Positions 8,464 through 50,778 of a stretch of 64,000 bases of DNA are shown here, piece after piece. The notes under the pieces were generated by a model. That model did not search any database, had not been told where the DNA came from, and worked only from the letters and a program-made list of their open reading frames with translations. The translations under genes were made by a program, and so were the position numbers. Position 1 is the stretch's first letter, and the number at the start of each line of letters is the position of its first letter. The stretch is from Naegleria gruberi (taxonomy: Eukaryota). The stretch lies in NCBI GenBank assembly GCA_000004985.1, contig GG738891.1; one strand, 5' to 3'.

Positions 8464-8916
8464 TGTGTAAATTTATAAGAGGTTTTAGAGGAAGAAACCG
8501 AAGCTGTTTGCGACGAGGTATTTTTTCGAAAGAAAAATCGCAATTATTTAGAGTCAACCTAGTCCTTGCCATTCTTACAACGTTGGCCGCTCTAAAAAAT
8601 GCCAACCACGTAAAATTTTTTAAGAACAAAAATTATTGGGCTTGATGGAAACGTGTTATGTGACAAGGCAATAAAGGCAAGTGGCAAACACATCAAAATT
8701 TACCTTCAAGTCTTTGGTTGAAGTAAGACAAAGGTGTTGTGAGAGTTTAGGTAGCAAAGAATAATTTGCAGAAAAACTGAAGGTCCTCATTAGTAACATT
8801 GGACGTAGACAGTATACTACTAGATCGATAGGCCATCTAACAGGAATCCAAATGGAGAACTGATTTTTATTCTTCTCCTCTTCCGATGAGAAAAGTAGTA
8901 ACATTGAACAAAAAAG
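8464..8916. promoter_or_regulatory. Bidirectional promoter and 5'UTR region between PABP (-) and an F-box-like gene (+)
   Basis: 453 bp between divergent ATGs. It is noticeably GC-richer and less repetitive than other spacers. The PABP-sense strand carries short A-runs (possible oligo(A) autoregulatory element, unproven). Overlapping track ORFs (8290..8478, 8370..8645, 8656..8904, 8820..9068) are judged spurious. Confidence 0.35.
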
Positions 8917-10044: not shown

Positions 10045-10266
10045 GGAATATCAGATTATTACAGGTTAACTTGTCCTATTTTCAATAAAAGCTTTCAAAG
10101 TTGTTTGTTCTTATGATAATTTATTAACAGGGTAAATTAAACTCACAGAATATCATTTTAAATTTAGCGCCATTTTTGCTTCCCGCCATTAAAAAATGAA
10201 AAATACTCTCGTTACAAGATTTAATAGCTTAACGAACAATGACTTGCCGCTCAGATTTGCTGGTGG

Positions 10267-12614: not shown

Positions 12615-12630
12615 ATTTTCTAAAATAGTT

Positions 12631-14906: not shown

Positions 14907-15241
14907 TCTAAATATAATATACAATTACAATCAATATACAACTCCAATTATTCTTCTAAAGTTAGCCTTTATAATCGGAAGAGTTTCTATTCGTTGAAAT
15001 TTGGAGTAACTTTTAGCAACAACACACGTGATGATGATTGTTGTTCGTTATTTTTTTTTAGTATTAAGTGATGAGCTGTTTTTATATTGTGTTACCGCGA
15101 AGAACAATTGAAACACGTTTGATTGAGAGAGAGATGAAGATTTATTAATAACTTTCTAATTGAAGATTTGTTAATATTTCAAAGATCAATGAATAATTTT
15201 ACTCTTTTACAAATGGTTTGAGTTTTTGGTTGACAAAAAAA

Positions 15242-17146
15242 ATGGGCAAACGAAAACATTCAAAAATTGCTAAAGAAAATCATCAAGTTGATAATGATGA
15301 CCAAATAGAAGAAGAGAAAATAGTGGTTTTACCTCCTAAGGTATCAACAAAAAAGAAGAAGAAAAAGAAGAGAAAGAAAACTTCTCATGCATCTATCTCT
15401 TCATCATCAGTCTCGACAATTAATTCTGGTAATTCTATTGGATCGGAAATGATTAAAAAATGGAATCAAATTATTAGTTTGCAAGATACACTTCAATTAA
15501 TATTGGGTTTCATTCCCGATTATTTATTGGAAAGAACGATGAGATTTGTGAATAGGGATTTTTATTTGGCTTCTTCTGTGGTTTTTAGAGAATTGAAAAC
15601 TTGTTTGAAACTTTCTAAATTTAATGGTGACGAGAAAATATTGGAGAGTTGGAAAAAGTTTAAAAATCTGAAGAGTATTGACTTGGAATTTAAATTAGGG
15701 CATGAGGAGTTTAATGCTTCTGGTATGACAGATTTTGGAATTGAAACATGTATAATTAACTTTACAAATTCAGTATTTTCAAAGCCTCTTGTGGGAACTA
15801 AATGGGCTGATACTTTGAGATACTTAGATATTTGTATCCAGCATCAACAGTTTTGTCTATTATTTGAGTTGAGTTTACATACCTTAATAGTAGAACTCCA
15901 AGAAGATAGTGAAATAGATCTAAAGATAGGAAAAGAAGAAAAACCTCTATTCAACAGTTTGACATATTTTAATTATTCTTTATCAACATTCAATAATATG
16001 GAGGAATTCATCAATAGACTTGTTAACCTTACAACGTTAAGGAGTGATGATGAAATGAATATTGAGTTACTGAAACTACCAAAAATTAAGATGTATGACT
16101 GCGCACAGTTTGAACTAGAAGGAATACCAAAGGCATTCCCAAGGTTGGAACACCTCAAATCTTCCTCCTTTCTTTCAACAGCAGATATATTACAAGCACT
16201 AACTCTAAAAACCTTAAAAACTTTATCACTTAACGTAAACACAAGTTCATTTGATTTACTATCAGACGCAATTTTTAGCCTACCACTCCTAGAAAAACTA
16301 TCATTGTTTATCAACTTTAGTAGCTCAGAAAATAATGATGTCATTGCATCAAAGCCATTACCTTATTTGAAAAAGGTCAAATTGGTTCTTATTGATTATG
16401 ATGATGAAATACCTCCAGTATCTATTAGTCATTTCAATCAATGTGAAAATATTGAGAAAATTAGTTTTTTAGATGAAGCGCGACAAATATCAGTAGATCT
16501 TAATGATTTTTCTCCTTTTTCCAAGCTGAAAAGTATTCTAATAACGTGTAAATCTGTTTCTAATTGGAAAAATCCTGTATCTACATTAGAAATTTTGTCC
16601 ATTACTACAGAAAAAGCAAGTAATATAACCCTGATAGGACTCGATAAATTGAGAGAGATAGATTTTGTGTCAGAAAATACGAGTAGTTTAGTTAAATACT
16701 TTAATCATCATGCACCTTGTGATGGCCTTAAAAAATTGAACATTTCTGGAAAAGACATTTTGAAATACCCATTCCCATCAAATCTGGAAAGTCTCACCAT
16801 TAGTAATTTGGAACTCAAAGAAACTGATGATAATTTTACCAACATTTTAAAGAAACAAACTAATCTTAGAAAAATAGTAATTGAAGAATCCAAACTTGAC
16901 CTTCTCTCAATACTAGAAACATTAACATGCCTCATTCATCAAGTTACGAAAATATCCATTGCTGGTAAATCATCCCCAACCCATTCAGAATCCAAATACA
17001 TCACCAATCTACTCAGAGTCCTCTCCATTTTCGATTCAAAGAGAATAATATTGGAATTAACTGAATTCAGTTTAACATTCTCTCATCAAGGAACAAGATA
17101 TCTCCGTTCTCAAATCAAGTCTCGTTTATTTGAATATTGGAAGTGA
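15242..17146 (+). CDS. F-box-like / leucine-rich-repeat protein
   Basis: The track ORF 15218..17146 begins at a TTG; the first ATG (MGKRKHSK) is at 15242. Lys-rich N-terminus, F-box-like segment (LQLILGFIPDYLLERTMRFVNRDF), then degenerate LRRs. See findings: a start-less coding exon in the +1 frame overlaps its 3' end. Confidence 0.5.
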   Translation: MGKRKHSKIAKENHQVDNDDQIEEEKIVVLPPKVSTKKKKKKKRKKTSHASISSSSVSTINSGNSIGSEMIKKWNQIISLQDTLQLILGFIPDYLLERTMRFVNRDFYLASSVVFRELKTCLKLSKFNGDEKILESWKKFKNLKSIDLEFKLGHEEFNASGMTDFGIETCIINFTNSVFSKPLVGTKWADTLRYLDICIQHQQFCLLFELSLHTLIVELQEDSEIDLKIGKEEKPLFNSLTYFNYSLSTFNNMEEFINRLVNLTTLRSDDEMNIELLKLPKIKMYDCAQFELEGIPKAFPRLEHLKSSSFLSTADILQALTLKTLKTLSLNVNTSSFDLLSDAIFSLPLLEKLSLFINFSSSENNDVIASKPLPYLKKVKLVLIDYDDEIPPVSISHFNQCENIEKISFLDEARQISVDLNDFSPFSKLKSILITCKSVSNWKNPVSTLEILSITTEKASNITLIGLDKLREIDFVSENTSSLVKYFNHHAPCDGLKKLNISGKDILKYPFPSNLESLTISNLELKETDDNFTNILKKQTNLRKIVIEESKLDLLSILETLTCLIHQVTKISIAGKSSPTHSESKYITNLLRVLSIFDSKRIILELTEFSLTFSHQGTRYLRSQIKSRLFEYWK

Positions 17147-17895
17147 GGATCAATTAAATGGAACTCAATTCTGTAATTCAATAACAAAGAATATTTGTGA
17201 CAAATTTTGTGATCTATTCAGAAAGGACATTCAAAATACATCAGTTAGAAAGGCATTCAAAGCATTCAAACCTCACTTGAATGTAATTTATAGAGATGTT
17301 ATTCTTTCAATAGGTAAACAATTGATTTATGATTGTACATGTTGTGATGCAAAGGTTGGATGGTTACACATATTTAACATTAAAAATTGCCCCAATATCT
17401 TTACTCCAATAGAGGTTCAAATAGTGGAACAGAAACCAACCAAGAAAAATTCCAAGAGGTAAGTGCATACTAAAAATTAGAGATCTAATACTAGATAGTA
17501 AGAATACAGTACAAAATATTGAAATGGCAAACACCTTTACCAAAGAACTTTCCCATTTTCAATGGATAATTGAATTAGAGAATGATCAACCACAAGTAGT
17601 TATTCTAGTCAATGATTTTCTAAATGCCTTTGTAAAAATTTGTAAAATATTCCCAGAAATACCCAACTTTACCAAAGTACGAGCCAAAACAGCTCCATCA
17701 AACACTTTTCAAGAGTGTTACATAATGAAATTTAACAATACTTTTGCCTGTCTACCAATAACAATAGATGCAGGAAATATTGATATAGAATCAGATATCC
17801 AATCAATTGTAAATATTCACTTGGAACGAATTGATAAATTTTTGGAAACTATACAAACAGAACTATCCCCACAAATAACCAATATTAAACTATAG
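17076..17895 (+). CDS. Cys-rich hypothetical protein segment: start-less exon plus a downstream exon (possibly the C-terminal part of the preceding LRR gene)
   Basis: Frame open from 17076; the track starts it at a TTG (17130). There is no ATG or internal Met in the 128 codons before a canonical 40-nt intron (17459..17498, gtaagt..atag), which splices in phase into track ORF 17524..17895 (MANTFTKELSHFQWIIELEND...). Contains a CxxC-rich segment (CNSITKNICDKFCDLF ... DCTCCDAKVGW). Confidence 0.4.
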
Positions 17896-17935
17896 ATCTG
17901 TCATGATAAGAAGATCAGTAATGATATATATAGTT

Positions 17936-18505
17936 TTACATCTTTGAATCAAAAGGTCCATTATGAATTCTAAGTCCAGTCTTTAGACAATTCAAATAAT
18001 ATCCATAAAATAAATCTTTACAGTTTTCATGTGTAAGCATGACATTTGCTGGATTAAACTCTTTAGCTCCCAAATTCATTAATTTGAAACATTTTTCATA
18101 CAATTTATAATGTAAATTGCATTTTCTAGTATTTGAAGCTGTTGCTGCTGCAAGATAATGCCTCCTATAAATACAATCACCATAATCCTTTGATATCTTT
18201 AAACAATCTTTATCATAATTAATTTCTTGATTATTCTGAAAACAATTTTTTAATTCATTATGTTCTAGAGAACAAACTAATCCACTAAATTTAAATGCAA
18301 ATGTATCCAATGTATCAAGTTGAACTCTGTAGAGTATTTCTCTCGGAATTTGTTTTTCATCTACTGGTCCAGCAGAGAATAATTCTCCCGATTCATAGTT
18401 GGGCATTTTTTTATTTGGTTTTTTAATTATTTGTTTTATTACTTTATTTTCACAACAAGTGAAAGTACTATAATATAATTCATTGAAAAAGTTACTGTAT
18501 TGCAT
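17936..18505 (-). CDS. Hypothetical Cys-containing protein (189 aa)
   Basis: ATG-initiated single ORF with no recognisable domain. The composition is not low-complexity. Confidence 0.4.
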   Translation of the reverse strand: MQYSNFFNELYYSTFTCCENKVIKQIIKKPNKKMPNYESGELFSAGPVDEKQIPREILYRVQLDTLDTFAFKFSGLVCSLEHNELKNCFQNNQEINYDKDCLKISKDYGDCIYRRHYLAAATASNTRKCNLHYKLYEKCFKLMNLGAKEFNPANVMLTHENCKDLFYGYYLNCLKTGLRIHNGPFDSKM

Positions 18506-18593
18506 TCATAACATTGATAATTGTAAGAGTATTTAATTATTCAATTATTCGGCTATAATTGAATTTTTATTTTTTTCATCAAGAAGGAAAAAA

Positions 18594-18797
18594 ATGGCTT
18601 TGTCCACTGTTCACGGAAAAGATTTAAAGATTTTAGGCGCCATCGTATTCGCTAGGTAAGTTGATGATGATGTTTAGTAGTGGAGATTAATTGATGATGA
18701 TTATAGAGTGTTGGTTAAAGCATACAGGGAATACACTAGACCAGATTATGCTGAAGTCACAAAGGCTGCCATTGGAAACGCACCAGCAAGCAATTAA
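18594..18797 (+). CDS. Small two-exon protein (50 aa), likely small membrane/mitochondrial subunit-like
   Basis: join(18594..18655,18707..18797); 51-nt intron gtaagt..tatag in phase 2, aaaaATG context. The product is MALSTVHGKDLKILGAIVFARVLVKAYREYTRPDYAEVTKAAIGNAPASN. It is invisible to the ORF track (too short, spliced). Confidence 0.4.
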
Positions 18798-33019: not shown

Positions 33020-34714
33020 ATGTACAGTAATGATCCTTTTGATGATGGGGAAAGAGTGAATCGTTTCTCTTCATTTGAACAGTCGGAGCCAGCGTTTGAT
33101 GAGAGGATGATGGAAGATAGACAACAATCATTTGGTGGTCCTTCTTCAAACTCAGCCTTGGATCCAGCCCTTAGAGCTCTTATTAAATATAGAAGAAGAA
33201 AATTTACAGAGTCTGTGGATGCTTGTAATCAGTTATTATCCAAAAATTATAAGGATATGTCCATGTGGTATATAAAATGTAGGGCGTTGACTGCTAAAAT
33301 GTGGATTGATGATACAGAAATGGAAGATGAAGGTATTGCTGATATTTTACTTGATGAAACATCGGTAACAACAGCTCCTCGTCCTGGAACTTCTCTTAAA
33401 AGACCACACACTAATTCATCAGGCAAAAGAAGTGCCAATCCGAGTGTCAGACCTCAAACTAAGGATGGAAGACCAATCACTGGTTTTTCAAGACCTGGTA
33501 CCAATAGCGGAAGAAACACTGCAAGTAGAGGTGGGACAGGAACACAAAGTAGAGGTGGAACTTCAAGTATTGAAAATATATTTAAAGGTGCAAGACCTGG
33601 AACAACAAGACCAGTTACTACAACAGGTAGATTTGTTCGTTTGGGTACTGCCTCAATGAAAATATCTGGACTTGATCAAGAATATGCAATTTCAACAGAA
33701 CATATTGATTTGAAAAAGTATGCTGCTATTCCTCCTCTTGCTAAAGCATTGTATGACTATTTTATAGTTGTGGAACATGATGTAAAAAAAGCATTAGAAT
33801 TGGCTTCTTATGCTACAATTGAGGCTGAATTTAAGGATTGGTGGTGGAAGGCTCGTCTCGGAAAATGTTACTACCAATTGGGTTTATTGAGAGAAGCTGA
33901 AAAACAATATAGATCTGCAATCAAGAGCCAGCACATGATTGCAACATGCTTGGAATTAGGCAAAGTTTTCCTACGATTGGATCAGCCTAATAAGGCTTTA
34001 GAAGAATACGAGTCAGCATGTTTGAAATTCCCAAATGATACACATTTGATACTAGGTATTGCAAGAGTTTATGATAGTATGAACGATCTGGACAAGGCCA
34101 TTCAATATTATGAAAAAGTGCTGCATCTTAACAGTAGTAACGTTGAAAGTATTGCTTGTTTGGCAGGTAACTATTTCTATGAAGATCAACCTGAAGTAGC
34201 TATCAGACTGTACAGAAGATTGATTCAAATGGGTGTTAATAATTCAGAATTGTGGAACAATTTGGGACTTTGTTGTTTCTACGCTTCTCAATATGATATG
34301 GTATTCTCATGTTTTGATAGAGCTCTCCAATTAGCTGAAGATAATAATGAAGCAGAAGTGTGGTACAATATTGGTCAAGTTGCCATTGGTATTGGTGATG
34401 TTGGTCTTGCATATCAGTGTTTCAAGATTGCCACAAGTATTGACAATGAACATGCAGAAAGCTTTAACAATTTGGGTGTTTTAGAATTGAGAATGGGCAA
34501 TACAGAAGAAAGTAAGAATTACTTTGCTCAATCAATGGCTCTTGGACCAAGTCAACACGAACAAATATTCAACAATGCCTTATTATCATTCAAGAGAGGC
34601 AATCACCAACAAGCTCACGAACTTGTATTGAAGATTCTGAAAGATATTTATCCTGAACATGCTGATTCTCAGGAATTGAGGAAGAAATTAGAAGCCAAAT
34701 ATTTAATGCTCTAA
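33020..34714 (+). CDS. bbs8: Bardet-Biedl syndrome 8 protein homologue (TTC8/BBS8, BBSome subunit)
   Basis: 564-aa single exon. Collinear with TTC8: YRRRKF...PRPGTSLKRP...GRPITGFSRPGT...GRFVRLGTASM...KDWWWKARLGKCYYQLGLLREAEKQYRSA...IARVYDSMND...VESIACLAGNYFYEDQPEVAIRLYRRLIQMG...LWNNLGLCCFYASQYDM...AEVWYNIGQVAIGIGD...FNNLGVLELRMGN, with a C-terminus ending ...KYLML. Confidence 0.85.
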   Translation: MYSNDPFDDGERVNRFSSFEQSEPAFDERMMEDRQQSFGGPSSNSALDPALRALIKYRRRKFTESVDACNQLLSKNYKDMSMWYIKCRALTAKMWIDDTEMEDEGIADILLDETSVTTAPRPGTSLKRPHTNSSGKRSANPSVRPQTKDGRPITGFSRPGTNSGRNTASRGGTGTQSRGGTSSIENIFKGARPGTTRPVTTTGRFVRLGTASMKISGLDQEYAISTEHIDLKKYAAIPPLAKALYDYFIVVEHDVKKALELASYATIEAEFKDWWWKARLGKCYYQLGLLREAEKQYRSAIKSQHMIATCLELGKVFLRLDQPNKALEEYESACLKFPNDTHLILGIARVYDSMNDLDKAIQYYEKVLHLNSSNVESIACLAGNYFYEDQPEVAIRLYRRLIQMGVNNSELWNNLGLCCFYASQYDMVFSCFDRALQLAEDNNEAEVWYNIGQVAIGIGDVGLAYQCFKIATSIDNEHAESFNNLGVLELRMGNTEESKNYFAQSMALGPSQHEQIFNNALLSFKRGNHQQAHELVLKILKDIYPEHADSQELRKKLEAKYLML

Positions 34715-34744: not shown

Positions 34745-36508
34745 ATGCAACAATCTAGTCGGAGATTAATCTCCAAATTACGAGCATCACCTTCACTACT
34801 TCGGAGGAAAACAAATAATATTTCTTTATCATCAAATTATTCTTCTTCTTTTCATCGATCCATTATTAAACAAAATACTAATAATAATAGCAATAATACT
34901 GTGGAAATAATTAATGAAGAAAAGGCTAAAGAACCTATTAAACTTCTTCAAAGAACAATTTCCTATCCAATTTATGAATCATTAGAATTTAATGATAAAA
35001 CTCATCTAGTCTATCAAAAGGAATTTAAATTATTGGAATCAAAATCTTTAAATTTAGAAATTAATACACGTAATATGAATGTAGAAATTTGTAATTATCA
35101 AGATGATGATAGTGATTCTATTAAAATTGAAATATATACACATAATTGTAATCCATATTCATGGTATGATTTAAATAATACACCACAAGGCTTCTTCTCC
35201 GATTATAAAATTGAACATTTATTTAGAGATTTAACAAATACATTGAGAATTAATGTTCATCAAGCACCAGTTCCTTCTCTTTTCTATAGACATAAATTAT
35301 TTAATCAAACTATTGATAATGTATTTCTTCCTAATGAAGTTTCTAAATTTATTGAAAGTAGAACTAAATTTACAACAATGAAAGTTTATTTACCTAAAGA
35401 AAATAATTCAATTAAAGTTGAAACTGATATTGGAAATATTATATTTAGAAATTTGAAAAATTTAAATGAATGTTTTGTAAAATCATCATTTGGATCATTA
35501 TATATTGATAAAGATGGCATTGATAATGTAAAAAAATTTAATTTGGAAATGTTATATGGATCTTGCTTTATTAAGAAAGTATCTAATGTGGAAAATTTGA
35601 AAATTAATCATTTATTTTCACTTATAGATCATTTTGGACGTGGAGCTGGAATTTTAGCATCAAATTCAATTACATTAGATAATATTGATTCAAATTCTAA
35701 TGTAAATATTCATACAATAGATCCAATAGATATATTTGTTAATCAGATTAGTCTTACAAATAATAATACTCTATCAATTTCATGTAGAACTAAAGATGGT
35801 ACTTTATTTACGTATACTTCAAATGGAATTCAAGTTTTTGTATCTGATGAAGTCAATTCAGGCACAAATTCAAAACTTAAAATATTCTCAGATTCTAATC
35901 CAATTACTTGCTATTTTGATAAGAATTCTGTTGTAAATTATAAAGTACAGGCTGTTTCACAAAGAAGTGATGTCTCAGTAGATTACAACAATATAATATT
36001 TGATGGAAGTGATGTTGTGAATAGTGTGAATGGAACAATTGTTAGTAGAAAAGATACTAAACGATTACATCTTCTCAATCAATCAATAATTGATTCTCCT
36101 CAAGAAGAAAATATTGATACTACTGCTACTGATTTATCCTCATTAACTGAATGCCCAATTGGTGGTGATGTATCAATGACTTGTAGACATTCACAAATTC
36201 ACATTAAACAATATGAATATCTTTTATTGGGTGATGGTGAACAAGGTGCTGATTCTGATTTGAGTACAAGACGATTACTCTATCAGAAACAAAGTACCTC
36301 AGAGTATTATATTGAACTTTTGGATTATAGAATTGCAAAGAGAGATGCTTTTGTTTACGTTTCCATAGCTGTTTTATTGATAATTTATGTTTCCATTATC
36401 AAATTTTATTCAATTCCAACATTTGAAAAGCAAGCTTGGTTGAACAATAGTGGAATGGCTTCAACGATGGGAAATCCAACTGAGGCTTTAAGACCAAACA
36501 CTAAATAA
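34745..36508 (+). CDS. Hypothetical protein with an Arg/Ser-rich N-terminus (possible organellar presequence) and a C-terminal transmembrane anchor
   Basis: 587-aa ATG-initiated ORF with Asn-rich low complexity near the N-terminus and a hydrophobic segment AFVYVSIAVLLIIYVSIIKFY near the C-terminus. No recognised domain. Confidence 0.45.
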   Translation: MQQSSRRLISKLRASPSLLRRKTNNISLSSNYSSSFHRSIIKQNTNNNSNNTVEIINEEKAKEPIKLLQRTISYPIYESLEFNDKTHLVYQKEFKLLESKSLNLEINTRNMNVEICNYQDDDSDSIKIEIYTHNCNPYSWYDLNNTPQGFFSDYKIEHLFRDLTNTLRINVHQAPVPSLFYRHKLFNQTIDNVFLPNEVSKFIESRTKFTTMKVYLPKENNSIKVETDIGNIIFRNLKNLNECFVKSSFGSLYIDKDGIDNVKKFNLEMLYGSCFIKKVSNVENLKINHLFSLIDHFGRGAGILASNSITLDNIDSNSNVNIHTIDPIDIFVNQISLTNNNTLSISCRTKDGTLFTYTSNGIQVFVSDEVNSGTNSKLKIFSDSNPITCYFDKNSVVNYKVQAVSQRSDVSVDYNNIIFDGSDVVNSVNGTIVSRKDTKRLHLLNQSIIDSPQEENIDTTATDLSSLTECPIGGDVSMTCRHSQIHIKQYEYLLLGDGEQGADSDLSTRRLLYQKQSTSEYYIELLDYRIAKRDAFVYVSIAVLLIIYVSIIKFYSIPTFEKQAWLNNSGMASTMGNPTEALRPNTK

Positions 36509-36525
36509 ATTAAATATTTAATTTC

Positions 36526-37176
36526 CTACTTGTTGAATAATGAATAGTAACAAATAATAATACATGTAAATACTGTAATAGAAAGTGTTACTAATTTAAC
36601 AATTTCAAAATCTTGTAAGTTTCCAACTGGTATATCTACTGATATTATTTGAGTATTTTCTGAATTGATAATATTAAATTCCTTTCCATCAATATAGAAA
36701 ATTGTTGGGATATTAATTTGCACAGTTGTGAAAGATTCAGTTGAGCTTGGAAATTGATATCTAAAATGTATTGGATATTTAAAAGTAACAGTGAATTCAT
36801 TTCCACTTTGTTTTACAATCTTTGACAATGTGACATTATGTTCAGTACTAGAATATGATGGTGCCTCAACATTGATATAATATTGATGTTTGGGTAAGAG
36901 AATTTCTTTCATATTATTAATTTCATAAATATCAATATAAATATCCTTTGATAATTTTTCCACATAGGAAATATTCATCAATTTACCAACAGCACTGTTC
37001 TCGGAATTATTTAATTTAATTCTAAATGTGCTAATTAATTCTCTGTGAAATCCTTGTTTTGTTAATTCCCTAGATATTAAAGATACTTCTTGTGTAGTAA
37101 CAAATTCTAGTTGTTGAATAAATAAAAGAGTGCCAATAATTAACATAATAGTGTTCCGAATAATCTTATTGTACAT
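36526..37176 (-). CDS. Type I membrane protein, possibly PIG-X/PBN1-like (GPI mannosyltransferase I accessory subunit)
   Basis: 216 aa. N-terminal signal/anchor (MLIIGTLLFIQQLEF), a C-terminal TM (IVKLVTLSITVFTCIIICYY) and a KYPIHFRYQFP segment resembling the PIG-X HxRY motif. Weak assignment. Confidence 0.35.
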   Translation of the reverse strand: MYNKIIRNTIMLIIGTLLFIQQLEFVTTQEVSLISRELTKQGFHRELISTFRIKLNNSENSAVGKLMNISYVEKLSKDIYIDIYEINNMKEILLPKHQYYINVEAPSYSSTEHNVTLSKIVKQSGNEFTVTFKYPIHFRYQFPSSTESFTTVQINIPTIFYIDGKEFNIINSENTQIISVDIPVGNLQDFEIVKLVTLSITVFTCIIICYYSLFNK

Positions 37177-37193
37177 TTTTTTAATTTAGTTTT

Positions 37194-40100
37194 TTACATT
37201 TGATTATTTTCTCTTACAATCTTTTGGATCAACTCTAATTTGGATTGTTCCATTTCTTGAATCTTATTAACAATGAAAAACATTTGATCTTTGGTTGTTT
37301 GTGCAACACTATCACATTGTAATCCTATTGAATTAATCTTTGAGAAACATGTTGAAATCTTTTCAAACATATTCTTTGAAATCTCTGATTGATCATTAGC
37401 TGAACTTTCTTGTTCATTCTTCATTTCTTCAACTTGTTTGGAAACATTTTGAATAGTTTCTGTCAATTCTTTAGAAACTTTATCCAAATTCTTCTTTTCT
37501 TCCTCTAATTTTTGGAGAACATCTTGTTTCACCTCATCTTCTAATAATTTAATACATTCTATCAAATCATCCTTTCCATTATTCAACCCCATTTCTGTTA
37601 TCTTGGCTTCAATTTGTGTAATTTGTTCTACATTCTTTGAAATCTTTCCAAGTACTTCATCGTCAATGGTTTTTCTTAAACTGGAGAGAGTTTCAGATTG
37701 TTCTTTGATTTGAGAAAGAGTTGGAGCTATTTCCTTATCGAGTTGTACCTTGATTTCATTTTCTTGGTTTTGTTTAAATGTAGATATAATATTTTCTTTC
37801 AATTCCACTTCTCTCTTTTCCAAACTTTCAATATCCAGTTTTTTCTTATCTAATTCTTGTAATTGGGTTTGAATTTGTTGAACCATTTCAGAATATTTCT
37901 TGAGATTTTCATCTTGAACGGATTGATTTTCTTTAGATATTAAGCTTTCCACTTGTGTTTTAAGATCTGAGAGTGTTTGAATTGTTATCTTATCTATAAC
38001 TTCCTTCAATCCAGTTATGGCTGTTTGATTTTCCTCGATTTGCTTCTTCATAGCGTCATTATCTCGTTTTTCTTTAAGGTTAGACAAAATATCTGAAGTT
38101 TCTGTCTTGAACTTTTGCAAATCCTCAAGAATCATATTGTTACACTTGGAATCTAATTCATAAACATCAAAGTGTGATTTAATATCACCCTTGATCTTAG
38201 TATTATCTTCTTGTAAAGCAGTAATAATATTGGAATCAACAGTTAAAATATTTTCACTCGAATTCTTTAAATCTTGTACAAGTTTATCTGACTCGGCAAA
38301 CTTTTCTTTCATTTCTTCAACTGATTTAGAGGTTTCATTCAATTTGTTTTGAATTTCTTCTTGATTTTCATTTAACTTCTTCAACGCTTCCTTAGTGTTT
38401 TGATCATCCTTTTCATTTTCCTCCAGCTCGTTTCTTAGATCCTCAATTGAAACTTCAATTGTTGCAAGTCTATCTATTGGAAGAGAATTCTTGATATCTA
38501 AAACAGAATTAACAATATCAGATGCTGTAGCTCTAACTTCTGAAATAGATTCATTCATATTTTGAATGGATGTTGTCATGGTATCTTTAACATTTTCAAT
38601 GGATGATTTGAGGGAAGATATACTTTCATCCATTTCAGTCTTGTTGATATCATTAACTTTTTTGATATTTTCGTCTAACTTGTTTTGAATATCTTTCAAT
38701 TCATTCTTTGTCTCATTGTCATCTTTTTCATTCTCCTGTATATCCTTTCGTATTTGATCCAAAGATTCTTCAATCTTTCCAATTTTTTCTAAAGGTAATT
38801 TTGATTTAATATCAACAACTTCATTAGAAAGTTCGTTTTGCTTTTCTTGAATATTGATTACGCTGTTTTGTAATTCATTGATCTTATTTTCACTATTTGT
38901 GATTGCTTTTACGCCATCCTTTGCAGATTTGATTTCCTCTTTGTGTGATTCGAGTAATTTTTCTTGGGATTCTACTTGAGTTGTTAAACTAGAAATTCTT
39001 TCATCATGGGATTTGACTTTTTCCTCGGTGGATGTAATTTGATCTTCAACCTTTTTGATTTCCTCTGCTACTACTTGTTGGACTTTTTCACCAAGCGATG
39101 TTTCTGAAACTACATTGTCCATCTTCTTGCTGACTTCTTGCAATTGGTTTTGGGATTCTTCTTGATTCGCCTTAATATTAATGTTCTCATTTTCCATTGT
39201 ACTAACAGATGATACGACATTTTCAATCTTTCGTAGAATGTCTGATTGAGATTTCTTGAGTTGATCCACTTCATCTTTTCCTTTGATTACCTCACCTTCC
39301 AAATTGGTTACCTTTACAGCAACATCAGAAACTGTACCATTAACAATAGTTTCCATTTCATCAAGTTTTGTTTTGAGCTTGTTATAATTTTCAGTGTCAA
39401 GTTTAGAGATTCTTTCAGCAATCTTGTCTTCAAATTGGTCTGCCAACTTTTTAACAGAATCATGTGATTCTTTCAAATCATTCAAGTTTGTATTCAATTC
39501 CTGAACCTTGTTTGAACTTTCAGTTAATTTTTGATGAATTTCCTGTTGATCTTCATTCAATTTCTTCAAGAGTTCCTTTGTATTTTGGTCATCCTTTTCA
39601 TTTTCTTCAAGTTCATTTCTTATTTCTTCCATAGAAACTTCCATGTTTGAAATTGTATCGATTGGTATTGAATTCTTGAATAAATCGACAGAGTTAACAA
39701 TCTCTGTTGCTGTATTTCTCACATCAGAAATAGATTGATTCATTTGTTGAATTGATGTTGTTAAAGATTGATTGATATTATCGACATCGTTCTTTACACC
39801 ATTAATCTTGTCTTCCAATAAAAGCTCTTCCTTTCTAATTTCTTCAATGGAAACTTCCATTTTTGAAATTGTATCAATAGGTAAGGTTTGTTTAACGCTT
39901 TCCACAGACTCTATAATTTCGCTGGCTGTGTTTCTAACATCTAATATTGAGCTGTTCATTTGTTGAACAGATGTCATCATGGTATCCTTAACATTTTCAA
40001 TGTCATTTTTAAGTGATAATATCTTTTCATCAAATTGTTGTTCAGTAGAAGTATTATTGGTTTCTATCAATCCCTTTAATTCTTCTCTAGATGTAGTAGT

Positions 40101-43100
40101 ATCATTTTTCAAAGTTGCAACATCCATTTCTAAAGTGGTAACAGATTTCTCCAATGATTGTGTTGATATCTTTACATGTTCATCAATAGTATTTGATAAT
40201 TGTTCTTGGGCAGATTTCAATTTTTCTTCAACGATAGCATTTACATCCAAACTAGAAGCAATCTTTTCGTTCAACTCTGCTTTGGTTTCATTGACATTTT
40301 CATGTAGACTATTCACATTCTCACTAATTCTTTCTATTTTATCTGAACTATCTTTCTCAACTCTTACTAATATTTCAGAACTATTTGCAATTTGTTTAAC
40401 AATTTCTTGAGTCTTATTATTCAAAATTTCAATCTTGGAAATGGTTTCAGTATTACTACCTTCTAATTTCTTTATGGATTCAAGAGCTGGTTGTAAATTA
40501 GTCTCAATCTTCTTGATTTGTTGTTTAGCATCTTCTATTCCTTTAGAATTTTCTTTAGAGTCATTCTTAACAGTTTCCAAATCTGTCTTTGTTGCTACAG
40601 TCTTGGTGGCTTCAGCTTGCTCCTCTTTGAACTTGAGTAATTTTTCAATCTTGTCATTCACAGTACTAAACTTTTCCAAAGAATTATCTCTAATATTTTC
40701 AAACTCCTTTTTCAAAGCATCAACCCTTTCAGTTGTTAATGTTAATTGTTGTGGTCTAACAGATTCTAATCTGATTTTATCATAAATATCTGAAATCTTC
40801 TCTTTAATTTCAAGTTTAACGCTCTTCTCTAGAGTTTCAATTTCATCTTTGAGTTTTTGTTTTTGATTGTCGTTGAGAGAATTCATTAGATCATTAATCT
40901 TTTTCAAAGATGTATCAATCTCTGACTTGGTATCTTGAATAAGCTTTTCAAATCTATTAATAACAGATTTCGTGTCTTGCTTAAGAGAATCTGTAATTCC
41001 AATAATGTTTTCAATTTTAGAATCAGAAGATTGAGAGTGTTCCTTGAGTGCTGTTGAAACTGTATCAATCTTATGATGTGCGCTCTTGGATTGTTCTTGC
41101 AAGGTTTCTGTTGTTGAAACGACTGAAGAAATTTTCTTGTTGATTGATTCTTCCATATTAGATACGTCTGTTTTTTTAACATGTTCAGTGATTTGTTTCT
41201 TGATTGCTTCAATCTTTTCATTCAATTCCTCTTCTGCTTTTTTAATCTTTGTAATTGTATCTTCTTGCTTTTTAGATGTATCACTTGTCGATTGTTCCAA
41301 ATCTCGTTGAATATCGCCAAGATCCTTGTTGGTTTGAATTTTCATGTCATCCAAAAGAACCTTGAAATCATCTAATCCTTTTCTAAGTTTTTCTGCTGAT
41401 TCTTTAAGCAAGGAATTCTCCTCCTTGAGTCTTTCTAATCTAAAGGTTGTATCGGAAATAGAGTTCTTTAATCCAATTTCTACATCAGATACTGAATCCT
41501 TCAACTTTCTGATACCTTCACTATTTTCATTATATTGTTGTTGCGATGTTGTACTATTGTTTTCAATCTTCTTATTAATTTGTTGAGTCTCTGATTCAAT
41601 GGAGGATTTCAAGTCTTTAACCTCATTATTTAGTGACTTCTTTACAGAGGTAATAGCTTCATCAGAATTTTCCTTATTCTTATTGATTAAATCCTTTGAT
41701 TCCTTCTTAAATGATTCCAAATCATTTTGTAAGGTATTGGATTTATCTTCAATAGTTTTCTCTAGAGTTTGACTTGTTTGGGTAATGTTCTTCTTGAGCT
41801 CTTCTTTTTGTTTTGTCATTGACGTTTCCAAATCAGTTTTAGATGTATTGATCATACTCTTAAGATCAATAAACTTTTTATCAATCTTGGAGTTTGTATC
41901 CTTTTCTCTATTAATAATATCTGACTTGACTGAAGAAATGTCCGAGTCGAGTTTCTTAGAAACTGTTCTGACTTGTTCTTCTGCTGAAGTTTTGTTGGCA
42001 TTAATTTCCTTCATCAAACTTTGCTCTAGCTTATTAGTCTTTTCATTCAAGTTTGTGTTGGCTTCAACCAACTTCTTAGAGACGTTTTCAAAGCGTGCAT
42101 CATTCAATTTTTGCTTTGAATTAACATCTTGCTCTAATTTTACAATATGTTGCTGCTGTGTTTGTATCTTTGTATCCATTTCCTTCTTGAGATTATCACT
42201 CTTTGTTAATAATTCTTCCTTATTTACGGTTAAAATTCTATTAACTTCAACTTCATGCTTTGAAAGGTTTGTTTTCATTTCATTCCTAGCATTTTCCAAA
42301 TTATCAGACAATGTTAAAGTTTCAGAATCGAATTTAACATTAAGGGCTGATATTTCAGAAATTAATTCCATTTCACTTTCGTTTAAAATCTTTTGAACAT
42401 CACTAACCTTTTCTTGAACGTCATTTTGAAGTCTACTATGTGATGCGATCATATCTTGTTTCAAGTTGTGTATAATCTTTTCTGTACTGGATTTTGTAGC
42501 TTGAACTCCTTCCTTTAGGTTTGAAGCTTCGTCCTTGAGATGAACGTTTGTCTTTTGAAGATCATGTTCCAGCTTTTCTACTTTTAAATCCATATATTGT
42601 CTAGCTACTTCTGAGGCACTTTTCAATACAAACTCATCACCTCTATTCATGGTTTTAATTAATTCTTCTCTCAGAGTAGTATTCATATAATCAAATAATT
42701 CTCTCTTCAAATTTGAAAGAGAAGAATTAAATTCTTTTTGAACTCCTGTTGCTGTTTCAAGAGCTTTAGCCAAATCCTTTTTGTGTTCTTCAATTTCTGT
42801 AAAGGCTTTTTCATTGCTTAATGTGAGAGAATCAACTGATAAATCAATTTTCTTATTCAATAGCTCTAAAATTTCGTGTTTTGCTTCGTTTTGTTGCTGT
42901 TTATGTTCTAAAAAGTCTTGTTTCACCTGAATGATACTCTTATCTATATATTCTTTGGTATTTTCCATAAAGCCTCGTATTCTCTTATCAATGTTATCAA
43001 ACTTTGATAATAATTCAACTTTGATTTCATCCAATGAATCACTTGTTACATGAAGAGAACCAGAATCTCTATCCTGAGTATCTATTGAAGAGTATGAAGT

Positions 43101-43484
43101 ATTACTTAAAGATGGAGTGATAAGATTTGTAGAGCTGATCAATGAATTTACGAAGAGTTTCTGTTTTTCTTCCGAGATGGAAATTTGTTCATTCATATTA
43201 GATTGAAGTCTTTTCCAATCCTTAGTTCTTAGTTGATTAAAGTCTTGTTGTACGGATATGATGGTGTTTCTAAAATTTACTGCCTGTTCTTCTAACAATT
43301 TCTTAAATAATGTAAATTGTTCTTCTATTAATTCATGTTGAGCAACGGCTGTTTCCTCCTTCTTTTCATTCAACAATACTTCCTTCACAATATTTCTTCG
43401 TTGTTCATCATACTCCTCCGAAGATATAAAACCCTGATTTAATAATTCCTTGAGAAGGAATAAGGTTTGTAAATGTTCCTTCAT
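37194..43484 (-). CDS. Giant (2096 aa) coiled-coil protein with internal tandem repeats
   Basis: Single 6.3-kb ORF, ATG at 43484..43482. Heptad-rich with E/K/L/N/Q/S/I-dominated composition throughout. Overlapping plus-strand track ORFs (39246.., 39772.., 39979.., 40435.., 41086.., 41181.., 41344.., 41785..) are low-complexity antisense artefacts. Confidence 0.75.
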   Translation of the reverse strand: MKEHLQTLFLLKELLNQGFISSEEYDEQRRNIVKEVLLNEKKEETAVAQHELIEEQFTLFKKLLEEQAVNFRNTIISVQQDFNQLRTKDWKRLQSNMNEQISISEEKQKLFVNSLISSTNLITPSLSNTSYSSIDTQDRDSGSLHVTSDSLDEIKVELLSKFDNIDKRIRGFMENTKEYIDKSIIQVKQDFLEHKQQQNEAKHEILELLNKKIDLSVDSLTLSNEKAFTEIEEHKKDLAKALETATGVQKEFNSSLSNLKRELFDYMNTTLREELIKTMNRGDEFVLKSASEVARQYMDLKVEKLEHDLQKTNVHLKDEASNLKEGVQATKSSTEKIIHNLKQDMIASHSRLQNDVQEKVSDVQKILNESEMELISEISALNVKFDSETLTLSDNLENARNEMKTNLSKHEVEVNRILTVNKEELLTKSDNLKKEMDTKIQTQQQHIVKLEQDVNSKQKLNDARFENVSKKLVEANTNLNEKTNKLEQSLMKEINANKTSAEEQVRTVSKKLDSDISSVKSDIINREKDTNSKIDKKFIDLKSMINTSKTDLETSMTKQKEELKKNITQTSQTLEKTIEDKSNTLQNDLESFKKESKDLINKNKENSDEAITSVKKSLNNEVKDLKSSIESETQQINKKIENNSTTSQQQYNENSEGIRKLKDSVSDVEIGLKNSISDTTFRLERLKEENSLLKESAEKLRKGLDDFKVLLDDMKIQTNKDLGDIQRDLEQSTSDTSKKQEDTITKIKKAEEELNEKIEAIKKQITEHVKKTDVSNMEESINKKISSVVSTTETLQEQSKSAHHKIDTVSTALKEHSQSSDSKIENIIGITDSLKQDTKSVINRFEKLIQDTKSEIDTSLKKINDLMNSLNDNQKQKLKDEIETLEKSVKLEIKEKISDIYDKIRLESVRPQQLTLTTERVDALKKEFENIRDNSLEKFSTVNDKIEKLLKFKEEQAEATKTVATKTDLETVKNDSKENSKGIEDAKQQIKKIETNLQPALESIKKLEGSNTETISKIEILNNKTQEIVKQIANSSEILVRVEKDSSDKIERISENVNSLHENVNETKAELNEKIASSLDVNAIVEEKLKSAQEQLSNTIDEHVKISTQSLEKSVTTLEMDVATLKNDTTTSREELKGLIETNNTSTEQQFDEKILSLKNDIENVKDTMMTSVQQMNSSILDVRNTASEIIESVESVKQTLPIDTISKMEVSIEEIRKEELLLEDKINGVKNDVDNINQSLTTSIQQMNQSISDVRNTATEIVNSVDLFKNSIPIDTISNMEVSMEEIRNELEENEKDDQNTKELLKKLNEDQQEIHQKLTESSNKVQELNTNLNDLKESHDSVKKLADQFEDKIAERISKLDTENYNKLKTKLDEMETIVNGTVSDVAVKVTNLEGEVIKGKDEVDQLKKSQSDILRKIENVVSSVSTMENENINIKANQEESQNQLQEVSKKMDNVVSETSLGEKVQQVVAEEIKKVEDQITSTEEKVKSHDERISSLTTQVESQEKLLESHKEEIKSAKDGVKAITNSENKINELQNSVINIQEKQNELSNEVVDIKSKLPLEKIGKIEESLDQIRKDIQENEKDDNETKNELKDIQNKLDENIKKVNDINKTEMDESISSLKSSIENVKDTMTTSIQNMNESISEVRATASDIVNSVLDIKNSLPIDRLATIEVSIEDLRNELEENEKDDQNTKEALKKLNENQEEIQNKLNETSKSVEEMKEKFAESDKLVQDLKNSSENILTVDSNIITALQEDNTKIKGDIKSHFDVYELDSKCNNMILEDLQKFKTETSDILSNLKEKRDNDAMKKQIEENQTAITGLKEVIDKITIQTLSDLKTQVESLISKENQSVQDENLKKYSEMVQQIQTQLQELDKKKLDIESLEKREVELKENIISTFKQNQENEIKVQLDKEIAPTLSQIKEQSETLSSLRKTIDDEVLGKISKNVEQITQIEAKITEMGLNNGKDDLIECIKLLEDEVKQDVLQKLEEEKKNLDKVSKELTETIQNVSKQVEEMKNEQESSANDQSEISKNMFEKISTCFSKINSIGLQCDSVAQTTKDQMFFIVNKIQEMEQSKLELIQKIVRENNQM
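38290..40010 (-). repeat. Intragenic tandem duplications (about 300-nt units, roughly 75-85% identical) inside the coiled-coil gene
   Basis: Three copies of the module IENVKDTM(M/T)TS(V/I)QxMNxSIxxVRxTAxxIVxSV...LPIDxxxxxEVS(I/M)E(E/D)(I/L)RxE (about 39800..40010, 39490..39790, 38290..38600). Two to three copies of LEENEKDDQNTKE(L/A)LKKLNExQxEIxxKL (about 39540..39620, 38360..38450, variant 38700..38800). Confidence 0.6.
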
Positions 43485-47952: not shown

Positions 47953-48284
47953 ATCTTTCTTTTTTATCTATTATTATTATGATATTGAATATTGATGAAG
48001 GAGTGATTCTATTTTTTATGTGGTGAATCTCTCTCGTTGTTCTGAATGATTCTAAAATGATGATTTTTAAATTTAATCTTTTATTGTCGGTTTTCAATCC
48101 GATCAACAACATTCCTCAAATTTAATTTAGCCTGTTTAGATCGGTAAGCTGTACGATCAAGTAAATTCTGTTCAGTCAAATCCTTATTAGAAAGCCTTTT
48201 TAGAAAATAATTTGAAAATAATTTCAATTACAAAAAACTATTTATTATTTTATTAAGCATTGGTTATAATATTATTGTAAAATA

Positions 48285-49634
48285 TTACAAAATTGGAACA
48301 TTTTTCTGTACAAATAATTTAGAAAGTGAATCTCTTGATTTTAAAATAAATCTTTCAAGTAAAATTTGTAAATCTTGTAAAACAAAATTACATAAAGTTG
48401 TATGTAAAATTAATGAAATTCTTTCAAATCTTTCTAAAATTAATTTTAATTCTTCAATTTCTCTAATTTTACTTGTTGATGAAAATTCTTTTAATAAATC
48501 TTCATAAATTGTAATCCAATCATCAATAAAATGAATATTATTAAATACTTGTATTAACCATGGTACATATGGTCTTTCTGATGTTTCTTCTTTAGCATTT
48601 CCTTTTATAGTATTTGATATTGTTTTAAACATTGATTTACCAAATCCAAATACTTTACTTGATAAGGAAATTGATGAATCAATATTATAATTTTCATTTT
48701 CATTATTTCCTGTTGTTACTCCTGCTATTGTTGTTGCTCCTGTTGTTGCTGTTGTTGTTGTTGCTGATGATGAAGAAGATGATAAATTATCATTTTCATC
48801 ATTTTCATCATCTAAAAATAAATTAAACATATTTGGATCTTGAATTGATAAAGGTTGATTTGATTGTTGTAATTGAATATTTAAATTAATATATTTAGAT
48901 AAATCTTTTTGTAAAATTAACATGTTATTTAATAATTTATCTTGAATATTAATAACAATTCCAAAATCAATTAATTTAATATCCTTTCCATTTTTAGAAT
49001 GTATTAACATGTCAGTTTTAAAATCAGAAATATTTTCTGATAATTTTTGACAAAAATTAATTTTATGAGATTGACCAAATAATTTTGCACCTTGTTGAAA
49101 CCAAACTTTCTTACTTATATACAAATTTGGAAATAAATGTCCTCCATTTAACATTGTTTGTGATAATCTTTTAATTAACCAATATGTACGATGTCTATAT
49201 TTAGTAGGTATATCAAATTCATTTGAATATTTTGGTATTTCTTCTTCAATATATTGAAATTTATCATTAAATATTATTAACTGTTGATGATTTTCTATAT
49301 TTGTTACAATTTCATTTGGATATAAATAGTCATGTAATTCTGAATTTAATTCTTTAACACTTTTTTTAATTTTTTTATGATTTGATAAAATATTTGAAAG
49401 TGTTGAATGATTTGTATTATTATTATTATTATTAGATGTATTATTATTGGATGTAGAATTGGATGTATTATTGGATAATGTAGAATTTAAATTGGATGTA
49501 GAATTGGATATAGCAGAATTATTCAAGACTGTTGAAATAGTTTGATTATTTCCATTAGTATTATTATTATTAGATACATTTTGATTATTATTTTCAATTA
49601 CAATAAAATTATCTTCTGTTGTAATACCTTCCAC
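48285..49634 (-). CDS. Asn-rich hypothetical protein; 5' end unresolved
   Basis: The track start is a GTG. The frame is open upstream to about 49761 through an AAT-microsatellite-encoded poly-Asn region with no ATG; the first in-frame ATG is far downstream (...SQTMLNG). A folded-looking region (YPNEIVTNIENHQQLIIFNDKFQYIEEEIPKY ... PYVPWLIQVFNNIHFIDDWITIYEDLLKEF) supports coding. Confidence 0.4.
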   Translation of the reverse strand: MEGITTEDNFIVIENNNQNVSNNNNTNGNNQTISTVLNNSAISNSTSNLNSTLSNNTSNSTSNNNTSNNNNNNTNHSTLSNILSNHKKIKKSVKELNSELHDYLYPNEIVTNIENHQQLIIFNDKFQYIEEEIPKYSNEFDIPTKYRHRTYWLIKRLSQTMLNGGHLFPNLYISKKVWFQQGAKLFGQSHKINFCQKLSENISDFKTDMLIHSKNGKDIKLIDFGIVINIQDKLLNNMLILQKDLSKYINLNIQLQQSNQPLSIQDPNMFNLFLDDENDENDNLSSSSSSATTTTATTGATTIAGVTTGNNENENYNIDSSISLSSKVFGFGKSMFKTISNTIKGNAKEETSERPYVPWLIQVFNNIHFIDDWITIYEDLLKEFSSTSKIREIEELKLILERFERISLILHTTLCNFVLQDLQILLERFILKSRDSLSKLFVQKNVPIL

Positions 49635-49700
49635 TATATTACCATTATTATTATTATTATTATTAATATTATTATTAACATTCTTATTATTATTAAATTG
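49410..49700. repeat. AAT/ATT (Asn-codon) microsatellite-rich segment
   Basis: Runs of (att)n/(aat)n at about 49415..49445, 49561..49572 and 49645..49700 within and upstream of the coding frame. Confidence 0.6.
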
Positions 49701-49857
49701 TTCTTGTTGATTTAATTTAGATAAATGATTAGCTCTATCTGAATATAATTTTGAATATTTAATACTTTTTTAAATATTTGAGAAAGATATTATAACAATA
49801 AATTACATTTCTGATAAAATTGTTTTTTACAAAAAAGAAAATTAAAATAGTTTATTG

Positions 49858-50778
49858 TTAATTTGATTTTGTAATAATTGGTGAATATTGAATAGGTTGA
49901 TTATTGAGTTCAAAATTTAAATCATTTTGTTTTTGTTTAAATTCAAATCTAATAAATAATATAATTACTATAAATGTAAATAAAAATAAAATTGATAAAA
50001 TTATTAAATTAAAATTTTGATTAAAATAAAATAATAATTGATTATCATCCATATTCATAATACTACATTTATTTTTAATACAAATAGGTTTTAATTTTAA
50101 ATTACCATATATATACATATTACTATATAAATTTAAATATTCTTTTTTACAATTATTATTATTGGAATCATTTTTACATTTATAAATATCATAATTACAA
50201 ATAATATTTTTTCTATTATTATACCAATTTAAATTTAAACTTGTAAAATCATTTAAATTATTAAAATTATTTTTTAAATTATTTAATAAATAACAATATT
50301 GTTCATTACAACAATCCCATCTAAAATTTAAATTATTAACAATTAAACAATCATTATCATAATTGCAATTAAATTTATCATTTTCATATTTTTTTAATTC
50401 ATAATCAGATGGATCTCCTTTTATAGTATTTATTGTAATATCATTATATATATTTAAATCAAATGGTAATGGTTCATTAAATATTTTAGGTAATTGTGAT
50501 ATAACTGTACATTTCATTGGATATACATTTTTATTAATTAAACAATCTTTAATTGATATACATTTATAGAAATTATTAATTTGATTCGAATTTTTATAAC
50601 ATTCACTTTTTAATAATTCATTATTATTAATTAATTCCGATTGTTGTTGTTTAGATTTATTTATTAATAATAAAAATGTTATTGTTATGATGATGAATAA
50701 TAATAATAGATTTGATGATGATTTGATGATTGTTGTTGTTGGTGTAGAGTGATTTGTTCTTTGGTGGCGTGATTGCAT
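49858..50778 (-). CDS. Cys-rich type I membrane protein, hypothetical
   Basis: The first ATG (50778) gives MQSRHQRTNHSTP..., followed by a hydrophobic signal/anchor (LLLLFIIITITFLLLI), about 27 Cys in an Asn/Tyr-rich ectodomain, a C-terminal TM (LIILSILFLFTFIVIILFI) and a short tail. The track start 50832 is a TTG. Very AT-rich coding, so moderate confidence only. Confidence 0.4.
   Translation of the reverse strand: MQSRHQRTNHSTPTTTIIKSSSNLLLLFIIITITFLLLINKSKQQQSELINNNELLKSECYKNSNQINNFYKCISIKDCLINKNVYPMKCTVISQLPKIFNEPLPFDLNIYNDITINTIKGDPSDYELKKYENDKFNCNYDNDCLIVNNLNFRWDCCNEQYCYLLNNLKNNFNNLNDFTSLNLNWYNNRKNIICNYDIYKCKNDSNNNNCKKEYLNLYSNMYIYGNLKLKPICIKNKCSIMNMDDNQLLFYFNQNFNLIILSILFLFTFIVIILFIRFEFKQKQNDLNFELNNQPIQYSPIITKSN

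Follow-up and report, generated by a model that had tools for sequence, protein, structure and literature searches.

Helical rods that depart from the heptad pattern include bacterial Scy/FilP, whose repeat is 51 residues long, SF-assemblin, with one of 29 residues, and tetrabrachion. In coiled-coil geometry, mixed heptad and hendecad spacing gives nearly straight or slightly right-handed packing and not a left-handed supercoil. Apolipoproteins are organized as proline-punctuated 22-residue amphipathic helices, and the helices of perilipins and synucleins have small-residue faces. The window analyzed here is a stretch of 64,000 nucleotides from contig GG738891.1 of Naegleria gruberi (assembly GCA_000004985.1); its GC content is ∼30%, and it is densely packed with intron-poor open reading frames (ORFs), one of which encodes a protein of 2096 residues. 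This ORF is uninterrupted, as stated in a first-pass annotation of the window, and lies on the minus strand. The product is probably a Naegleria-restricted, soluble and acidic rod of 240 kDa, almost wholly α-helical, that acts as a lineage-specific spacer, tether or scaffold. It is a fibrous protein of an ordinary, lineage-specific kind, and the results give no sign of a new type of system. Its features of modest interest are the non-heptad periodicity, a SHOCT-like head, a likely absence from the public annotation and a clear confinement of conservation to the two ends and a short island, the island having been multiplied by old intragenic duplications and then kept under purifying selection.

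The sole homologue found is Naegleria lovaniensis C9374_009891 (XP_044544442.1, 2017 residues), with E values of 9e-85 in a word-index search and 7e-222 with HMMER. Its annotated gene has a single exon of 6054 nt, and its start and end coincide with those of the N. gruberi ORF, which indicates that the ORF is the whole gene and agrees with its initial description as a single exon. The order YhhN, AAA_2, large gene, PIG-X is common to both species, and these comparisons show the ORF to be a genuine, functional and Naegleria-restricted gene. Residues 1–642 align with the orthologue at 35% identity and residues 1–420 at 44%. When the two proteins are compared window by window, conservation is seen in residues 1–440, where it is strong, in an island at residues 881–1000 that is off-register, in the second half of a repeated module together with the acidic tail that follows it, and at the C terminus, where the conserved segment holds three of the protein's four cysteines; the remaining rod has no detectable conservation in this comparison. 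A profile of the N-terminal region searched with HMMER against 1.84 billion representatives recovered the orthologue and, apart from it, just four proteins with repeats or low-complexity sequence, and a scan of metagenome contigs yielded no relatives. The additional HMMER matches are best read as repeat and low-complexity artefacts. Profile positions 295–423 were matched in 18–22 stretches each by BCA96633.1, a giant repeat protein of 4261 residues from the amoeba-associated bacterium Legionella antarctica, and by an ENA protein of 3956 residues; the latter was rejected as a homologue when pairwise comparison gave only a weak resemblance between repeats rich in Glu, Pro and Val.

The calculated pI of the N. 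gruberi protein is 4.9 and its grand average of hydropathy (GRAVY) is −0.88. Glu (13%) and Lys (12.7%) are followed in abundance by Ser (9.9%), Leu (9.4%), Ile (8.4%) and Asn (8.3%); Leu, Ile and Val together make up 23.5% of the residues, and Ala (2.8%), Gly (1.3%) and Pro (0.4%, 8 of 2096) are scarce. The protein contains no hydrophobic segment (the maximum Kyte-Doolittle score over 19 residues, KD19, is 0.72), no basic cluster and no C-terminal membrane anchor. AlphaFold2 models of residues 1–420 and 1140–1745 consist of helices only, 57–135 residues long, with a predicted local distance difference test (pLDDT) score of ∼65 that rises to 77–89 in residues 1–40. The long helices and the low proline content bear out the first-pass description of a long α-helical fibrous protein. 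Six helix breaks are predicted in the part with the repeats, and four of them coincide with the conserved prolines in the LPID, IPID or LPLE sequences of the four modules.

The same annotation called the protein heptad-rich, which its periodicity does not support. Among 77-residue windows 85% are significantly periodic; among the 246 significant windows the period is at most 3.54 in 56 (23%), ∼3.6 in 85 and at least 3.63 in 105, so that 77% lie at 3.55 or above. Heptad-like stretches with a period of 3.5 are found at about residues 700–800, 1400–1540 and 1700–1800. The global hydrophobic peaks are at 3.60 and 3.65 in N. gruberi and at 3.66 and 3.58 in N. lovaniensis, and the sole signal near 3.5 is a weak peak at 3.47 in N. 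gruberi. The autocorrelation of the N. gruberi protein peaks at offsets of 7, 11, 14, 18 and 25 residues; that of the N. lovaniensis protein peaks at 11, 22, 33 and 44 and stays coherent out to 264 residues. An amphipathic helix of mixed heptad and hendecad spacing, with 11- and 18-residue patterns, thus makes up the rod, and this spacing predicts nearly straight or slightly right-handed packing and not the classical left-handed supercoil. A search for charge periodicity over long distances, a possible sign of staggered assembly, gave a negative result. An autocorrelation peak at offset 51 (z 4.9) is present in residues 150–1130 (about 40095–43037), outside the modules; 51 equals 4 × 11 + 7 and is the repeat length of bacterial Scy-type hendecad coiled coils, which may be a coincidence.

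Searches for known families gave matches below threshold only. The Pfam scan, at E ≤ 1, lists Apolipoprotein, SHOCT, AAA_13 and SHOCT_2 and has no rootletin, golgin, GRIP, GRAB, SF-assemblin, Filament or LEA match. With Apolipoprotein A1/A4/E (PF01442) the N. gruberi protein scores 23.9 bits and its N. lovaniensis orthologue 48.3 bits, as compared with a cut-off of 90, and the only match in a PDB sequence search is ApoA-IV (3s84, residues 508–713, E value 2.5e-5). NCBIfam matches are confined to SMC/Rad50 coiled-coil arms at 20–55 bits, against cut-offs of 300–1087, and the Pfam scan has no ATPase domain other than a sub-threshold coiled-coil stretch of AAA_13. When the module profile was searched against PDB and Pfam, only sub-threshold generic helical matches were obtained, among them a keratin 2B segment (E value 0.003–0.02) and Apolipophorin-III. 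Foldseek comparison of both AlphaFold2 models with PDB gave nothing below an E value of 0.01, and the matches at or above that value are generic helical hairpins from Smc arms, chemoreceptors and axonemal proteins. These results place the protein, on sequence and predicted fold, outside the golgin, rootletin, SF-assemblin, intermediate filament, SMC and apolipoprotein families. SMC/Rad50/SbcC was rejected as an identity since the arms alone match, without Walker A/B ATPase heads or a full-length match, and the intermediate filament/lamin family was rejected in the absence of a Pfam Filament match, the keratin 2B similarity being the only one.

A hidden Markov model (HMM) of the repeat module was built from copies A, B and C and run on the 2096-residue protein. 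It identifies four copies (Table I) and no significant match elsewhere in the protein. The three IENVKD...LPID...EVSIE copies described earlier are therefore present as A, B and C, to which the divergent copy D can be added, and the "two or three" ENEKDD copies are three, located behind B, D and C. The repeat unit is a core of 72 residues, or 105–125 residues with the tail in copies B, C and D; D and C are in tandem with an offset of 105 residues. Since the modules span ∼427 of the 2096 residues (∼20%), the claim that the protein is built from modules of about 100 residues fits neither the extent nor the length of the repeat. A self-comparison of the DNA picks out three related segments, spaced 216 and 1185 nt apart, and the protein self-dot-plot has offsets of 72, 395, 467, 105 and 290 residues. 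A super-repeat search detected no 72- or 105-residue periodicity outside residues 1140–1745, and Tandem Repeats Finder (TRF) detected no tandem array in the DNA. In N. lovaniensis there is one recognizable module (residues 1509–1601, independent E value 4e-7), which contains LKENEKEDEETK / ITEIRSALKENEKEDEETK; its position corresponds to that of copy D, and all of the N. gruberi copies match N. lovaniensis residues 1530–1600. The orthologue has repeats of its own, in a region of 11-, 22- and 33-residue tandem repeats at residues 897–976 and at residues 1040–1114, with internal offsets of 11, 22, 33, 132 and 165 residues that are all multiples of 11, suggesting that the two species expanded different parts of the rod.

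Intragenic duplication, as first proposed, did occur, but the duplications are old and not recent. Copies A, B and C are 50–57% identical in amino acid sequence and ∼65% identical in nucleotide sequence across the entire 72-codon core; identities of 69–78% are confined to the best BLAST sub-segments of 147–247 nt, and the 75–85% given previously is too high for the core as a whole. Among the copies, identity is 74–80% at codon positions 1 and 2 and 35–47% at position 3, as compared with 31 ± 5% at position 3 when in-frame pairs are drawn at random from this gene. Nei-Gojobori estimates of synonymous divergence (dS) are 0.87–2.2, and the ratio of nonsynonymous to synonymous divergence (dN/dS) is ∼0.2–0.4. 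The near-random third positions and the high dS indicate that synonymous sites are near saturation, and the dN/dS values indicate that the copies have been kept under purifying selection. No stretch of DNA longer than 17 nt is repeated exactly within the ORF. A gene with no longer exact repeat than this carries no realistic risk of assembly collapse, to which it had been said to be prone. Smith-Waterman scores group the copies as ((A,B,C),D) and leave the N. lovaniensis module outside this group, and the grouping fits a proposed order in which a 105-residue tandem duplication would have produced C from D, C and its tail would then have been copied 395 residues upstream to give B, and a tandem duplication of the 72-residue core would have given the A/B pair. 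All three duplications would have taken place in the N. gruberi lineage after it parted from N. lovaniensis, unless the additional copies disappeared from N. lovaniensis.

In overall architecture, a conserved head of ∼440 residues, with a SHOCT-like start and a predicted disordered linker of ∼30 residues, is followed by a rod of ∼1,500 residues that keeps its amphipathic periodicity of 3.6–3.67 and its short heptad stretches despite rapid change in sequence, and then by the weakly conserved C-terminal end. The second half of the module with the acidic ENEKDD tail forms the one conserved rod island, present once in N. lovaniensis and four times in N. gruberi. The stripe of Leu, Ile and Val may be buried by self-association in a helical bundle, nearly straight or with a slight right-handed twist, in which the conserved prolines of the modules would act as kinks or hinges. 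At a rise of ∼0.15 nm per residue, 2096 residues in a continuous helix would extend ∼300 nm. The protein would serve as a long structural spacer, tether or scaffold. The conserved ends would provide anchoring or oligomerization, and the module may be a partner-binding or hinge site that duplication has multiplied, each copy lengthening the rod by ∼11–16 nm.

The SHOCT-like motif at the N terminus is plausible and is kept between the two species. SHOCT (PF09851) scores 19.1 bits with the full protein, 25.5 bits with the isolated N-terminal 40 residues and 15.8 bits with the orthologue, the cut-off being 27. The domain has been found in 14 N. gruberi proteins (PMC3581485). The protein resembles the SHOCT proteins in that its N-terminal 30 residues fit the helix-turn-helix consensus of a domain expanded in N. 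gruberi, and it differs from them in its score and in the location of the motif, which is N-terminal here and usually C-terminal elsewhere. The secretome of N. fowleri includes a "SHOCT domain-containing protein", which was considered as an orthologue and rejected because of its size, 69 kDa. Several points weigh against the proposed rod and its anchoring ends. The SHOCT match is below the Pfam cut-off, and the sole published test of SHOCT saw no oligomerization (PMC3581485). The tertiary arrangement in the AlphaFold2 models is of low confidence, with predicted template modeling (pTM) scores of 0.24–0.27, amphipathic helices that bind surfaces, those of apolipoproteins among them, typically have an 11-residue periodicity too, and the statements on conservation rest on one comparison of two species.

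The periodicity leads to a different reading, in which the protein is a giant surface-binding amphipathic helix of the apolipoprotein, perilipin or LEA type, acting on membranes or lipid droplets or in desiccation protection. The 3.6–3.67 periodicity, the coherent offsets of 11, 22, 33 and 44 residues in N. lovaniensis, the Apolipoprotein A1/A4/E scores in both species, the ApoA-IV match and the weak similarity of the module to Apolipophorin-III are all consistent with this, but the Pfam scores are far below the cut-off, no LEA family is matched, and helices of 57–135 residues in a protein with 8 prolines are not proline-punctuated 22-mers. The content of Leu, Ile and Val, with little Ala and Gly, fits a protein core better than a small-residue face, and we consider a surface-binding role unlikely. 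The annotation made at the outset described instead a canonical heptad coiled-coil fiber of the golgin, centrosomal or flagellar-rootlet kind, with recent duplications and an unreliable number of assembled repeats. Size, a composition rich in Lys, Glu and Leu and long helices fit fibrous proteins in general, and there are some stretches with a period of 3.5 and weak generic matches to SMC/Rad50 arms. Heptad-like windows are, however, a minority and the main peaks are at 3.60–3.66; the nucleotide identity, dS, third positions and longest exact repeat of the copies disagree with recent duplication, and neither a rootletin, golgin, GRIP or SF-assemblin match up to E = 1 nor a membrane anchor was found. 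A fiber of this description is quite improbable.

The striated flagellar rootlet of Naegleria, the rhizoplast, might also be considered as the destination of the protein. At least 50% of the rootlet is one large protein, of 170 kDa, that is synthesized de novo in differentiation, and a review from 2016 names no gene for it (PMC2111796, PMC4819266). Our literature search found no paper tying a Naegleria gene to the rhizoplast protein and nothing on hendecad proteins in Naegleria. The ORF is large, fibrous and Naegleria-specific and, being apparently absent from the public protein set, would have been missed by array and proteome studies that relied on this set. Against its being the major structural protein of the rhizoplast are the calculated mass of 240 kDa as compared with 170 kDa, the absence of the long-range charge periodicity expected of a staggered, 21-nm-banded assembly, and the genomic context. 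The first-pass annotation had pointed to BBS8, which does lie 2.5 kb away, but BBS8 is not adjacent to the orthologue in N. lovaniensis, and the adjacency loses the meaning that it had been given. Large coiled-coil genes are, in addition, numerous in any eukaryotic genome. We regard an identity with the major rhizoplast protein as very unlikely, and it is just as much of a long shot that a cytoskeletal structure specific to Naegleria, with the rhizoplast as the best candidate, has the product of this ORF as its major filament protein, the filament being based on a straight, non-heptad coiled coil with 11- and 18-residue patterns. Were the protein a subunit of a rootlet or cytoskeletal filament, the non-heptad spacing would make it interesting structurally. 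The positive evidence for the surface-binding, heptad-fiber and rhizoplast readings is limited to composition, size or periodicity. The absence of the protein and its fragments from a collection of 15 billion proteins that holds its neighbors might suggest a spurious ORF or a pseudogene in AT-rich DNA, but a 6.3-kb open frame at 30% GC is not expected by chance from the frequency of stop codons, a syntenic orthologue is 44% identical over the first 420 residues with a conserved start and end, and dN/dS among the internal copies is below 0.4; the chance that the ORF is spurious is negligible. A lineage-specific helical rod is the reading that we retain.

The positions of the features discussed and of the neighboring genes are given in Table I.

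Table I. Location of the 2096-codon gene, its internal features and adjacent genes in the window
Feature	Position	Strand	Evidence
2096-residue protein gene; uninterrupted ORF of 2096 codons, single exon, complete	37194..43484	minus	ORF and syntenic N. lovaniensis orthologue
SHOCT-like helix-turn-helix, residues 6–35, LQTLFLLKELLNQGFISSEEYDEQRRNIVKEVL	43380..43469	minus	Pfam SHOCT below cut-off; AlphaFold2 pLDDT 80–89
Conserved N-terminal region, residues 1–440	42165..43484	minus	collinear with orthologue; all-helical model, disordered linker at residues 118–149
Module copy A, 72-residue core, residues 1149–1220, without ENEKDD tail	39825..40040	minus	independent E value 4e-38
Module copy B, core residues 1221–1292 and ENEKDD tail residues 1293–1345	39450..39824	minus	independent E value 6e-57
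Module copy D (divergent), core residues 1511–1582 and ENEKDD tail residues 1583–1615	38640..38954	minus	independent E value 1e-12
Module copy C, core residues 1616–1687 and ENEKDD tail residues 1688–1740	38265..38639	minus	independent E value 2e-55
Weakly conserved C-terminal end, residues 1980–2089	37218..37547	minus	29% identity, E value 3e-5, z 10.2
F-box protein, NAEGRDRAFT_71600, EFC40684	30986-32887	minus	exact match to N. gruberi protein
TPR protein NAEGRDRAFT_80979 (BBS8)	33020-34714	plus	exact match to N. gruberi protein
PIG-X ORF	36526-37176	minus	conserved; co-oriented with the 2096-residue protein gene
Kinase, NAEGRDRAFT_71604, EFC40685	43768-45135	minus	exact match to N. gruberi protein

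The exact 2096-residue sequence is not in the collection of 15 billion sequences, and no N. gruberi sequence matched the full protein, the first 420 residues or residues 1511–1740. The word-index query with residues 1511–1740 returned 934 candidates, an unsaturated list, and zero matches; that with residues 1–420 was saturated at 8000 candidates by low-complexity proteins and missed even the orthologue, so its negative result is uninformative. Exact look-up of antisense ORFs within the gene gave no annotated model on the wrong strand. EFC40684 and EFC40685 are consecutive GenBank numbers although PIG-X and the 2096-codon ORF, also on the minus strand, stand between the two genes, which suggests that both are unannotated in N. 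gruberi. The large gene, and probably PIG-X, thus seem to be absent from the public N. gruberi protein set, to judge from the protein numbers, and studies of proteome or expression in Naegleria differentiation that used this set would have overlooked the large gene.

The kinase gene separates AAA_2 from the large gene in N. gruberi, and these two genes adjoin in N. lovaniensis (locus 7533–16054); comparison of the two orders identifies the additional kinase as a local insertion or loss within an otherwise conserved arrangement. On the other side, the stop codon of the large gene (37194–37196) and the ATG of PIG-X (37176) are separated by a 17-nt spacer (37177–37193, AAAACTAAATTAAAAAA), which is 87 nt in N. 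lovaniensis. With a spacer of 17 nt, either the two genes share a transcript, or the signals for the 3′ end of the large gene and the PIG-X promoter have to extend into coding sequence. A 587-residue ORF beside PIG-X (34745–36508, plus strand) has no Pfam or NCBIfam match, and its exact sequence is missing from the public collection; at its position in N. lovaniensis (16810–18789) there is a gene for 659 residues without domains, and the ORF may be another Naegleria-specific gene. The TPR protein matches the PDB BBS8 chain 6vbu_8 over its full length (E value 9e-156) and is a clear BBS8/TTC8 orthologue, and its public names, "PI-PLC Y-box domain-containing protein" in UniRef and hypothetical protein at NCBI, look wrong or uninformative. 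The GC minimum of the window (0.20, at 48001–50000) overlaps a 449-residue ORF (48285–49634, minus strand) with a GTG start and no Pfam match.

The closest relative, the N. lovaniensis orthologue, shares with the N. gruberi protein its gene order, single exon, N-terminal ∼440 residues, C terminus, periodicity of 3.6–3.67 and module, but it has one module instead of four, and the central rods are largely unalignable except for the off-register segment at residues 881–1000. As in rootletin, golgins and centrosomal proteins, the N. gruberi product is large, fibrous, helical, acidic and rich in Lys and Glu; it differs from these in being mainly non-heptad and in having no family domain, membrane anchor or homology, and the link to them drawn in the first-pass annotation is not supported by any Pfam, PDB or fold match or by a GRIP or GRAB domain. 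With the exchangeable apolipoproteins it has in common an 11/22-residue amphipathic pattern, and both orthologues give weak matches to that family, but the scores are 24–48 bits against 90, the helices are not punctuated by proline, the protein is ∼10 times longer, and it has no signal peptide. The likeness to Scy/FilP, tetrabrachion and SF-assemblin lies in a long helical rod, a periodicity above 3.5 and the peak at offset 51; there is no sequence homology to them and no Pfam SF-assemblin match, and size and taxon are different.

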